Shown: one piece after another, positions 51,411 to 62,603 of the stretch
Layout: the number at the start of each line of letters is the position of its first letter
How positions within the stretch are numbered: position 1 is the stretch's first letter
Translations under genes and position numbers: made by a program
The notes under the pieces: generated by a model
The model's input: the letters and a program-made list of their open reading frames with translations, nothing else
Database searches by the model: none
What the model was told of the DNA's origin: nothing
Source of the DNA: a virus
Taxonomy: Duplodnaviria > Caudoviricetes
Length of the DNA: 64,000 nt
Strand: one strand, 5' to 3'
Virus record (IMG/VR): IMGVR_UViG_3300032280_000442
Coordinates: 244,575-308,574 of that record

Positions 51411-51640
51411 TCTGTGATAAGACCTTAAGATTTACTCATTCGTAGGTCACCCATTCTGTACTACCTAAAACTCGCCTTTAACATCCGTTCTACCCAAACC
51501 ATCGTTTATTTCTTGTTAACCTCACGGTTATCTTTGAGTACCTCCTCAACTGTAATCTGATAGGGGCTCCATATTGCTCGTCATTTCTGACTCCCTATGG
51601 GGTTCTGCTGTAATAGGTCTATCTGCTATCTTATCACAGA
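51411..51640 (-). ncRNA. Unassigned ~230-nt structured RNA
   Basis: 12-bp closing helix TCTGTGATAAGA/TCTTATCACAGA; internal GTCA-GAAA-TGAC, TAACC-GTGA-GGTTA, TTGAG/CTCAA, ATAGGG/CCCTAT. Confidence 0.6.
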
Positions 51641-51751: not shown

Positions 51752-51826
51752 GTGGACGTATGCTCTACCATCTGAGCTACAGCTTTTAATCACCGGAGGG
51801 ATTTGAATCCTCGACACAACGTCCAC
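51752..51826 (-). ncRNA. Circularly permuted tRNA-like RNA (YrlA-like topology)
   Basis: GTGGACGT-TGTGTC-GAGGA-TTCAAAT-CCCTC-CGGT..GCTG-TA-GCTC-AGATGGTA-GAGC-AT-ACGTCCAC. Confidence 0.7.
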
Positions 51827-51917: not shown

Positions 51918-52019
51918 TAGTCAGGACAGGATTCGAACCTGTTCCGTCTTTACCATAAAGAGTCGGCCTTACCGTTACTCAACCTTGGGGAGGTGATTCC
52001 AACCAATGGACTCCTGACT
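51918..52019 (-). tRNA. tRNA-like RNA with two extra hairpins in the variable region (isotype undetermined)
   Basis: AGTCAGG/CCTGACT acceptor; ACAGG-TTCGAAT-CCTGT T arm; TCCA/TGGA D stem. Confidence 0.65.
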
Positions 52020-58983: not shown

Positions 58984-60009
58984 TTACAACTTTTTGAATT
59001 CCGGTCTAATTAAATTCCATATAATTTCAGAATAATCTTTTTTATCAAACATTCTGAATAGAATCCCTGACATATGTTTAGGTTGAGTTGATACCCACTC
59101 AGCAAACTCTTTTCTATCAGTGATAGGTTCTTGGTCGTTATATTTCCCATACATTTTATAGTCAAACTTTTTACCAACATCTTCAGATATTTGAAAGTAA
59201 TAATATTTTAATTCTTTGATGTAGTTTTCAATTTTTTTGTAGAACTCATCCGGAACATCTTTTAATAGTTCCATAACATCCTCACCATTTTTCAAATACT
59301 CCCAAATACCGGTTGTGGTTACGTTGGTCATTATTTTATGAAGACGAAGATACTCCACCCCCTTAACTTTGATTCTATCTCCGTTGGAGAACTTCACTAC
59401 GAACCCTTCTTGGTCGTTTTTAACCATTTCTTTAAGTTGTTTGTAGTCTTTGATACCGTCATATTTTTTAACCACGTCAAACCCCCATTGTGACCAAATT
59501 GAGGAATCGGTTTCTTTTCCGTTCTTATCAAAGGTTCCCAATAAAACTAGTTTTTCATCAGTACCATAATCCAAAACAATTCTATTTTCCGGATAGATGA
59601 TTTCAAAGCAGAAAGTCAGATGTCTGAACATTATGTCAGTATTATATTTTCTTAAGATTTCTCTTGCTTTGTTTGCTTGGTCTGAGGTGAATGAACCACG
59701 AGTGGCAACCACCCATTGACCTCGATACCAAAATACGATACCCAATGAACCGTCCATTTTTTCATAAACCTCAAACTTTTCGGTTGGTTCAAATTTACCT
59801 TCTTCTATGTTGAAGAACTTTTGGAATGGAGTTGCAACTATATCTCCGGTGTCGTCGGTAACTAAACCTCTACACATAAGAGTCACCTCATCCCACAGGT
59901 TTTCGTACTGAACTTTTTCAGTATAATTCCATATGGTTAATGGAAGTGATGGATGTACTTGTTTGTAAAGTAATCCGTCTTCGTAATATTTGTTTAGTTT
60001 TTCTAACAT
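58984..60009 (-). CDS. RNA ligase (T4 Rnl1-like)
   Basis: KFFN; YEKMDGSLG (motif I); FEII; EGFVV; RIKVK. Confidence 0.9.
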   Translation of the reverse strand: MLEKLNKYYEDGLLYKQVHPSLPLTIWNYTEKVQYENLWDEVTLMCRGLVTDDTGDIVATPFQKFFNIEEGKFEPTEKFEVYEKMDGSLGIVFWYRGQWVVATRGSFTSDQANKAREILRKYNTDIMFRHLTFCFEIIYPENRIVLDYGTDEKLVLLGTFDKNGKETDSSIWSQWGFDVVKKYDGIKDYKQLKEMVKNDQEGFVVKFSNGDRIKVKGVEYLRLHKIMTNVTTTGIWEYLKNGEDVMELLKDVPDEFYKKIENYIKELKYYYFQISEDVGKKFDYKMYGKYNDQEPITDRKEFAEWVSTQPKHMSGILFRMFDKKDYSEIIWNLIRPEFKKL

Positions 60010-60899: not shown

Positions 60900-61562
60900 T
60901 TACTTTCTTTTTTTACCGTCTTCAGTTATTACCTCATCTATGTGGTGGTCAAATAACATATCTGACACAATCTCACGTTTATCCATCATTCTTATGACAT
61001 CGTCCATATCATAAACACCAAAATTTGGATTACCATCAATCCCAACATCCATTTTTTTACCTTTACCAAATCTTAAATTTGTTGGAAGGTGTACGTGTCC
61101 GTGAAGGTGGATGTGACCTTTATTTAAACCATCCCACGACGCAATCGGGAAATGACATAACACAAATGTTTTGAATTTATAAGTTAATCTTGTGTAGTGA
61201 TTAACACTTGAGAATAATTCTTGAATGTTATCTCTATTTTTTTCAATATGTTCGTCGTGATTACCTAATATAAGGTGTATCTCTTTACACACAATTCTAT
61301 CTCTAAAAACTTTTATATTTTCAAAACCACCAAAACTCCAATCACCCAAGTGAATCAAAACATCGTCTTGACCAACAACACTATTAATGTTATTCACAAT
61401 AACTTCGTTCATTTGTTCAATCGTGTTGAAATCTCGGGTTTGGTCTATTGGAATACTCCCGTCAGGTAATCTCCACCCGGTTACACCACGACATATATTT
61501 TTATGTCCGTAGTGTGTGTCGGAGATTATCCATACCTTCCTATCTTTATCTATCTTAATCAT
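60900..61562 (-). CDS. Calcineurin-like metallophosphoesterase
   Basis: SDTH; HLGD; GNHD; HGHVH. Confidence 0.9.
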   Translation of the reverse strand: MIKIDKDRKVWIISDTHYGHKNICRGVTGWRLPDGSIPIDQTRDFNTIEQMNEVIVNNINSVVGQDDVLIHLGDWSFGGFENIKVFRDRIVCKEIHLILGNHDEHIEKNRDNIQELFSSVNHYTRLTYKFKTFVLCHFPIASWDGLNKGHIHLHGHVHLPTNLRFGKGKKMDVGIDGNPNFGVYDMDDVIRMMDKREIVSDMLFDHHIDEVITEDGKKRK

Positions 61563-62052
61563 ACTGCAAATCTAATTCTTTTTTTCCAAACCAAAATGGT
61601 TTTTCTCTGTTTTTCCAAGAAGCTAAATCACTTTTGGCTCCCATATAATAATTTCTATAAGATTCCACAACAGAATCTACCTTAAACTCATCCGGCATTG
61701 CTCTCGCCGGAGTAGTAAAACCAATGTCCGGAATGTTTGGTTTGTTTATAATACACCAATTAATCACATCTATTGATTTGTGTCTTTTACCATACCTGTA
61801 GGTATATTCTTTTCCAAGTTCCAACCCCAACTCACACAAATACAAATAGTTTGATAAACTCTCACGAGCCCAAATAGCACAAGGGTGATTCTTATGTGAT
61901 AACTTGTACGGTACTTGGTCGGTAGCTTGGTCGGTTACGTGGTGAACACCACATAACAACTGAGCCGTTTCCAAAATCATTTTAACTACGTGTTTATCTA
62001 CGTGGTATTTTGCCGACAACGTCGGATTCTCATCTAAGAAAAATATATTCAT
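61555..62052 (-). CDS. Pyrimidine-dimer DNA glycosylase-like protein
   Basis: MNIFFLD...HVDKHVVKMILETAQLL; HKNHPC; YRNYY. Confidence 0.75.
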   Translation of the reverse strand: MNIFFLDENPTLSAKYHVDKHVVKMILETAQLLCGVHHVTDQATDQVPYKLSHKNHPCAIWARESLSNYLYLCELGLELGKEYTYRYGKRHKSIDVINWCIINKPNIPDIGFTTPARAMPDEFKVDSVVESYRNYYMGAKSDLASWKNREKPFWFGKKELDLQYD

Positions 62053-62501
62053 TATACGTGTGGTATTTGGACTCTAACACAAGTTTGTGCTTGACCCTCG
62101 TTCATATAAAAATTGTTTAAATATCCCATTATGTTTGCACTACCAATTGGATTTGCTGAATGAACATATACAATTGGAAACACAAATTTATCCGCCTTTC
62201 TCTCACTTCTACTCATATTGAATCTACCCTCATTTGTATTGTGAAATAAAGCAACCAAGAACTTAGCTGCGTCATATCCGGTTTTTTCTTCAATATTGTT
62301 GTAATCCAAAGTATAATTTGGAGAAACATTATCGAAGTATTCTTTCATTGCAGTATCACCCAAATCGTGGTCCAATGATATAATATCAATTTTACCCAAC
62401 CCAACTTCATTAACTTTACTAACGAATTCATCATAATTTCTTACAACAATCCAATTATCTCCGATTGGAGTTCTTACGTCATCTAAATAAATTCTACACA
62501 T
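62052..62501 (-). CDS. Cyclic-phosphate-processing receiver-like domain protein
   Basis: IYLDDVR; ISLDHDLG; TGYD; VHSANPIG; start 62501 lies downstream of TATCTTTG promoter at 62519-26. Confidence 0.75.
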   Translation of the reverse strand: MCRIYLDDVRTPIGDNWIVVRNYDEFVSKVNEVGLGKIDIISLDHDLGDTAMKEYFDNVSPNYTLDYNNIEEKTGYDAAKFLVALFHNTNEGRFNMSRSERKADKFVFPIVYVHSANPIGSANIMGYLNNFYMNEGQAQTCVRVQIPHV

Positions 62502-62603
62502 ACCTATTAATTTTGATACAAAGATAGTCAAATTTTTAATATAAAAAAATCCATCACGAAAAAATGATGGATTTAATTTGAAACCTTGTTATTAGTTTAT
62601 TTT

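Follow-up and report, generated by a model that had tools for sequence, protein, structure and literature searches.

YrlA RNAs bind Rsr and are modified by TruB and DusA. They belong to the Y RNAs of bacteria and phages and possess an effector half that mimics a tRNA (PMC4201824); a crystal structure of YrlA was reported by Wang et al. 2018 (10.1101/312249). The proposed Rsr/Ro60-binding motif (GNCGAAN0-1G) is located near the 5' end of the RNA, in a long basal stem (PMC4201824). Phage Y RNAs have been described beside phage Ro60 genes in mycobacteriophages, CcrColossus, and Bacillus phage G (Chen et al. 2014, PMC4201824) and in Thermus phage phiLo (Yrl1 and Yrl2; PMC12135203). YrlA RNAs have been sought only beside Ro60 genes (PMC4201824), and the protein bound by their tRNA-like half is still to be found (10.1101/312249).

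Here, we analyzed a 64,000-nt stretch of phage DNA, hereafter the window, which contains a small RNA built as an inside-out tRNA. The window spans the terminal 64 kb of an IMG/VR phage record of 308,574 bp that has direct terminal repeats, and the host of this phage is probably a member of the Bacteroidota. The original prediction had proposed a circularly permuted tRNA-like RNA of the YrlA type. This assignment was borne out by the order of the elements, by a match to the YrlA model, and by the reciprocal match. We refer to this RNA as the mimic.

Occurrence of the mimic and organization of the RNA array

The sample comprised 79 loci around relatives of the neighboring SmpB gene, and the family was searched for with blastn and with a covariance model, R2, built from the candidate family. 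The mimic was present in 25 related phage loci, with R2 scores of 97-108 bits. Three divergent paralog types, scoring 35-58 bits with R2, were carried in addition or instead in some of the loci. The sequences of the type found in the window are designated group A and the paralogs groups B, C, and D. Group B stands in for the mimic in some phages, and groups C and D are second copies located directly after the odd tRNA described below. Complete genomes carried one or two copies of the mimic, only within this RNA array, and the window holds a single permuted module.

The mimic is located on the minus strand of the window, inside an RNA array that is nearly devoid of protein-coding genes. Along this strand, a promoter-like site is followed, in this order, by the mimic, an odd 91-nt tRNA, an RNA stretch of ~230 nt, the GOLLD RNA, and the gene encoding SmpB.

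51896-51865, minus strand: promoter-like site (placed at 51895-51867 by the scan; sequence; conserved in relatives)
51860-51827, minus strand: predicted 5' leader, with a boxA-like tract conserved across the group A and group B cassettes
51826-51752, minus strand: tRNA mimic (sequence, fold, and covariation)
51751-51742, minus strand: 10-nt spacer between the mimic and the odd tRNA (sequence)
51741-51651, minus strand: odd 91-nt tRNA with a hairpin in the D loop (tRNA finder and Rfam scan)
50874-50469, minus strand: conserved 3' half of the GOLLD RNA, downstream on the same strand (Rfam, 307.7 bits)
50394-49957, minus strand: SmpB

The neighbors of the mimic are an 84-amino-acid open reading frame, an M23 peptidase gene, and RNAs. 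The Rfam tmRNA model gave a match at or above the gathering score in most of the related loci, L003, L013, and L030 among them, and no match in the window itself. A 102-nt tRNA-like RNA with extra hairpins was detected upstream of the cassette promoter (51918-52019, minus strand). It scored only 17.4 bits with the Rfam tRNA model and is common to locus L006, not to most of the relatives.

Structure of the mimic

The fold of the mimic consists of an 8-bp closing helix, a variable loop, a T arm, a capped acceptor-like hairpin, and a perfect D arm. All of the elements listed in the original prediction were found in their places on the minus strand.

51826-51819, minus strand: closing helix, 5' strand, forming 8 bp with 51759-51752 and taking the position of the anticodon stem
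51818-51813, minus strand: unpaired U followed by the 5-nt variable loop GUGUC (51817-51813)
51812-51796, minus strand: T arm, with a 5-bp stem and a UUCAAAU loop
51795-51780, minus strand: capped acceptor-like hairpin, with 4 pairs (two of them G-U) and an 8-nt loop
51779-51760, minus strand: U8 and A9, D arm (51777-51762), A26, and U27
51759-51752, minus strand: closing helix, 3' strand (sequence and covariation)

The nucleotides on which the tertiary structure of tRNAs depends are present in group A, namely, U8, A9, A14, G15/C48, G18G19, U54, U55, C56, and A58. The last C of the variable loop GUGUC can form the Levitt pair with G15, and this segment is conserved in the entire family as xGxGUC. 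The D arm has the sequence GCUC / AGAUGGUA / GAGC, including G18 and G19, and is nearly invariant in groups A and B. Groups B to D depart from the tRNA tertiary nucleotides at a few positions of the D and T loops. The T arm of the window copy contains a nonstandard combination, A53/C61, and group A generally has A or U opposite C at positions 53 and 61, whereas a standard G53-C61 pair is found in groups B to D. The elbow of the group A RNAs might be weakened by this nonstandard pair.

Two group B paralogs (L002:2585-2680 and L030:2083-2177) have GU in place of G18 G19 in the D loop. In L002, the C56 residue of the T loop is replaced by A, a change that would turn the tertiary pair G19-C56 into U-A; the pattern of exchange is inconsistent, since L030 retains C56.

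The acceptor-like hairpin has no free end and no CCA. Thus, the L-shaped RNA would not be chargeable, because it has no free acceptor end, and it would neither decode nor be cut in the anticodon loop, because it has none. This anatomy fits the proposal of a minimal mimic of the tRNA elbow that offers neither an anticodon for cleavage nor an end for charging, a function that we likewise infer. The minimum-energy fold contained the same four helices, with a free energy of -22.9 kcal/mol and a z score of -2.4, which is modest when taken alone. Neither ARAGORN nor the Rfam tRNA model (RF00005) detected a tRNA at positions 51752-51826, as had been anticipated for standard tRNA finders.

Conservation and covariation

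Base pairing was analyzed in 18 distinct sequences. Standard pairs occupied 93.9% of the cells, in comparison to 60% or less for slid controls, and compensatory changes on both sides were present in 13 of the 21 base pairs. The covariation score was 0.454 versus 0.093 or less when the partners were slid by 1 to 3 columns; since the alignment was fitted to the model, these values are slightly biased toward the structure. Compensatory changes can likewise be seen plainly in the raw sequences. In the closing helix, 6 of the 8 pairs showed such changes and 99.3% of the cells were paired; the variants GUGGACGU, GUGGGUGU, and GUGAGUGU each occur with their own complement. Covariation was observed for all four pairs of the capped hairpin, the loop of which varies in length among the paralogs, from 4 nt to over 20 nt, and for two of the five pairs of the T stem. 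These results indicate that the mimic is a real structured-RNA gene maintained by selection.

None of the 18 sequences deviated at the two junction-proximal pairs of the closing helix, a hint that a recognition surface may be located there. At the other end, the helix is extended in some relatives, up to 12-14 bp, and neither the sequence nor the length of this outer extension is conserved.

Promoter, leader, and cassette

The original prediction had described the mimic as the first RNA after its promoter, and just upstream of the mimic we found the promoter-like site that is conserved in relatives. This site can be read as a sigma-70-like promoter, TTGACA-17-TATCTT. It can also be read as a promoter of the Bacteroidota type, TTTG-N20-TAnnTTTG, a consensus that reportedly goes back to work by Bayley and colleagues in 2000. 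The boxA-like tract of the leader, GGUUCUUAAAAA, is located at 51852-51841. The leader tract GUUCUUUAAAAAUAUUGA is common to locus L127, in which it precedes a Ro60-linked phage YrlA. The promoter and the leader are conserved in groups A and B, and the sequences located further upstream are unrelated between phages, indicating that the unit behaves as a mobile cassette.

This cassette consists of the Bacteroidota-type promoter, the boxA-like leader, the mimic, and the odd 91-nt tRNA, upstream of GOLLD, SmpB, and tmRNA. The odd tRNA was detected in 12 of the 13 mimic-bearing loci scanned and adjoins a copy of the mimic in most of them. The spacer between the mimic and the next gene is 5-11 nt long in most relatives; the mimic and the tRNA are about 150 nt apart in several loci. 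Neither the mimic nor the odd tRNA was found in 11 related GOLLD loci in which GOLLD, SmpB, and tmRNA are present. Thus, the cassette is accessory to the GOLLD core, its mimic and odd tRNA being acquired and lost jointly. The two RNAs may function as a working pair. The GOLLD-SmpB-tmRNA core can do without the cassette, which may therefore have a minor role or act exclusively in cis.

A module acting only in cis would be a tRNA-shaped 5' cap that folds, protects, or processes the RNAs of the operon, chiefly the odd tRNA. Three observations are consistent with this reading: the mimic is the first structure after the promoter and the leader, its gain and loss coincide with those of the odd tRNA, and a second copy is located directly after this tRNA in some relatives. 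We nonetheless regard an exclusive role in cis as rather unlikely. A simple hairpin would suffice for such a role, and the distance of about 150 nt separating the mimic from the tRNA in several loci does not favor it. In addition, the elbow and Levitt nucleotides and the two junction-proximal pairs are conserved across the four groups, which argues for recognition of the tRNA shape.

Relationship to YrlA

The original prediction had called for a search with the YrlA model. When it was run, YrlA (RF02553) was the only meaningful Rfam match, with a score of 30.1 bits and an E value of 2e-5 per genome. The model aligned to the T arm, the capped stem, the D arm, and the inner helix of the mimic. 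The score is below the gathering threshold of the YrlA model (30.1 versus 69 bits), and the paralogs scored 24-35 bits or gave no match. Among the matches listed, five phage YrlAs adjacent to TROVE genes scored only 33-42 bits with the same model. Junctions between tandem tRNAs scored 25-33 bits with the Rfam YrlA model and up to about 36 bits with R2. Since bona fide TROVE-adjacent YrlAs fall below the threshold and tandem-tRNA junctions reach overlapping scores, neither the failure at 69 bits nor the match at 30 bits is very informative, and the case for the mimic therefore rests on covariation and anatomy.

In the other direction, R2 recognized YrlA-type modules of bacteria from many phyla with scores of 20-50 bits among the matches listed. 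YrlAs of the Bacteroidota obtained good scores, no better than those of other phyla among these matches; the tRNA-like domain of one of them, L316, scored 47.6 bits. The best viral matches outside the clade, among those listed, were L126 (54.8 bits) and L127 (44.2 bits), which are phage YrlAs located just upstream of TROVE genes. As these are the nearest relatives outside the clade among the loci sampled, the most likely ancestor of the mimic is a Ro60-linked Y RNA whose "handle" was lost. Thus, the mimic is YrlA-like in its fold and probably related to YrlA by descent.

Search for the docking motif and for a Ro60-like partner

The Rsr/Ro60 docking motif is absent from the mimic, the motif positions of the YrlA model being aligned to its A-rich leader, and none of the relatives has GNCGAAN0-1G in the conserved leader. 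On the other side of the RNA, the 5-11 nt that follow the closing helix leave no room for the 3' strand of a docking stem. YrlAs of the Bacteroidota carry a 5' GGUGUCGUAG...UUACUUCG module.

As originally predicted, the mimic is shorter than YrlA at the Ro60-docking stem and no rsr gene is present in the window; the same holds for the entire 308,574-bp genome. More precisely, TROVE/rsr genes were absent from the window, from the whole phage, and from four relatives with a completeness of 96-100%, and the controls were detected. To conclude from the lack of TROVE that a phage has no Ro-like partner is unsafe. Among the IMG/VR matches listed, nine unrelated complete phages carried closed-acceptor mimics. 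Four of these nine phages encode TROVE, three encode DUF2828/DUF7788, in one case directly downstream of the RNA (L178), and two encode neither. DUF2828/DUF7788 thus replaces TROVE in three of the five TROVE-less complete phages among these matches, and we therefore extended the searches to DUF2828, DUF7788, and VWA families. DUF2828 (PF11443) and DUF7788 (PF25043) were absent from the phage and from the four 96-100% complete relatives, and no member of two VWA families was found in this phage, the sole genome searched for them; as these searches relied on Pfam families, a highly divergent Ro60-like protein or another partner could escape them.

The mimics adjacent to DUF2828 have in common a 5' ACAGCA handle (L145, L170, L173, L178, L209, L211, L214, and L228). 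ACAGCA is absent in and beside the mimic (51752-51826). The RNA stretch of ~230 nt that follows the odd tRNA (51411-51640, minus strand) contains AUUACAGCAGAAC, which includes ACAGCA; this occurrence may be due to chance or be the sign of a related RNA, since the phage has no DUF2828 gene.

Other RNAs were observed among the viral matches. In a complete 43-kb phage (L168:1448-1495, minus strand), a permuted T arm, a capped acceptor, and a D arm are followed by a hairpin resembling an anticodon arm. A 245-amino-acid open reading frame with no Pfam match (1957-2694) is located directly upstream, and this phage has neither TROVE nor DUF2828. Matches to the abiF RNA (RF03085; gathering score of 37) were found at L183:482-518 (46.8 bits) and L144:35-71 (44.9 bits), in both cases at the edge of a dense viral tRNA array.

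The phage might also provide a Y RNA for the Rsr/Ro60 of its host, thereby bringing the RNA half of the particle in order to hijack or block it. TROVE was present in five of five Bacteroidota genomes carrying YrlA-type modules, among the matches listed, and the mimic resembles the tRNA-like domain found in the Bacteroidota, such as that of L316. Furthermore, Ro60 is able to bind helices with single-stranded tails, according to the literature. This possibility appears unlikely, since both the docking motif (GNCGAA or, in the Bacteroidota, the GGUGUCGUAG... form) and the long basal stem are missing and since the next gene begins only 5-11 nt after the mimic, leaving no 3' strand for a docking stem.

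RNA-repair genes and tRNA decay

Bacterial YrlA is encoded in RNA-repair operons, and a set of genes for enzymes of this type is present in the window at a distance of 7-10 kb from the mimic.

58984-60009, minus strand: Rnl1-family ligase (PF09511, 68 bits)
60900-61562, minus strand: calcineurin-like metallophosphoesterase
62052-62531, minus strand: cyclic-phosphate-processing receiver domain (PF20274)

The mimic could be a substrate or a platform for phage RNA repair, the Rnl1-type ligase circularizing it, as originally suggested, or being occupied with it, in keeping with the location of its ends exactly where a broken anticodon loop would be. We consider this explanation quite improbable. 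The proposal is a purely geometric one; the ligase genes lie apart from the mimic, and there is no conservation of the flanking sequences from which the "loop" would be made.

The least likely alternative is the decay of a tandem-tRNA junction or a true permuted gene maturing to a decoding tRNA. Phage tRNA arrays are dense and the YrlA and R2 models also score tandem-tRNA junctions (25-36 bits), but this alternative is effectively excluded by the lack of flanking tRNA halves, by a narrow sequence pattern found only in this phage clade, and by the covariation of both the closing helix and the capped hairpin in relatives, so that the mimic is not the remnant of two tRNA halves that the original prediction had considered; a permuted tRNA is at odds with the 3-5 acceptor pairs and with the lack of a CCA, a discriminator, and an anticodon loop. 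In order of likelihood, the cis-acting module ranks before the Y RNA for host Rsr, which ranks before the RNA-repair substrate, and tRNA decay or a permuted tRNA comes last.

Proposed function

Overall, the best explanation is that the mimic is a selected small-RNA gene of the YrlA class acting as a stand-alone mimic of the tRNA elbow, a conclusion that we hold with moderate confidence. The RNA retains the tRNA core, with the D arm, the T arm, the variable loop, and the elbow and Levitt contacts, the chain ends being moved to the side of the anticodon stem and the acceptor stem being reduced to a capped hairpin of 3-5 bp. The cassette would be transcribed from its own Bacteroidota-type promoter, and cleavage by RNase P at the adjacent tRNA would create the 3' end of the mimic, thereby freeing an RNA of roughly 85-120 nt. 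Once released, this RNA may function in trans, imitating the tRNA elbow on its own. As a decoy or an adaptor, it would bind a protein of the host or of the phage that recognizes both the D/T elbow and the junction-proximal helix.

A more specific version of this function, which we find rather doubtful, is that of a "headless" Y RNA used as a weapon, either as an effector sponge or as a decoy for a defense enzyme, without a Ro60-like partner. Of YrlA, the phage would have retained nothing but the half that is shaped like a tRNA and binds the effector. During infection of Bacteroidota, this half could soak up the protein that normally docks on the Rsr-YrlA particle of the host, or it could be a decoy for a host defense enzyme that recognizes tRNAs. 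If true, a stand-alone function would be established for the first time for a tRNA mimic of the YrlA type, and the RNA would provide a direct bait for the long-sought YrlA effector.

For the stand-alone elbow mimic in general, the conservation of a handle-less form in phages that have no Ro60-like gene would give the tRNA-shaped half a job of its own, and the clean 75-nt mimic offers a bait for the search for its partner. The mimic also adds a defined piece to the largely protein-free array of freshwater jumbo phages, which comprises odd tRNAs, GOLLD, and tmRNA/SmpB.

Comparison with known systems

Circularly permuted tRNA genes (Cyanidioschyzon and some archaea) and two-piece tmRNA are similar to the mimic in that the 3' half of the tRNA body is encoded first. 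They differ from it by a full 7-bp acceptor stem, which is opened by processing, and by an anticodon loop or a tag region. In all four paralog groups, the acceptor of the mimic is a capped hairpin of 3-5 bp and there is no anticodon loop. The comparison originally made with the permuted tRNA genes of algae and archaea fails for these reasons. A functional permuted tRNA or two-piece tmRNA was rejected as a candidate, based on the 3-5 pairs and on the lack of a CCA, an anticodon loop, and a tag.

The tRNAs linked to GOLLD (Kretsch et al., 10.1101/2024.12.08.627333) are comparable to the mimic as tRNA-shaped RNAs located just upstream of a phage GOLLD, but they are ordinary tRNAs. The 11 related GOLLD loci that are devoid of the mimic indicate that its link to GOLLD is not obligatory.

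Like the mimic, the phage RNAs linked to DUF2828 have a sealed, back-to-front tRNA core and are located inside phage RNA/tRNA arrays. The ACAGCA handle and the adjoining DUF2828/DUF7788 gene (L178) distinguish them from the mimic, which has neither. Similarly, the Ro60-linked Y RNAs of phages are phage encoded and often near tRNA genes, but they are located within about 1 kb upstream of TROVE and possess a docking stem, both of which are absent in the case of the mimic.

The closest system is YrlA itself. Both RNAs have the T arm followed by a capped acceptor-like stem-loop and by the D arm, share the nucleotides for the tRNA tertiary contacts, have their chain ends on the side of the anticodon stem, and lack a CCA end. 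The covariance models of YrlA and of the mimic family recognize each other's sequences. In contrast to YrlA, the mimic is devoid of the GNCGAA-type Rsr-binding motif, of the long basal stem, and of the V stem-loop, and its core is limited to ~75 nt versus roughly 110-120 nt for YrlA. The sequence of its T stem is not the conserved YrlA one, and the genome that encodes it has no Ro60 gene. The novelty that the original prediction implied for the architecture was overstated in view of the work of Wang et al. (10.1101/312249), since the inside-out tRNA is already in print as YrlA and is common in phages. What is new here is a stripped-down form of the YrlA structural class, without handle and without partner.
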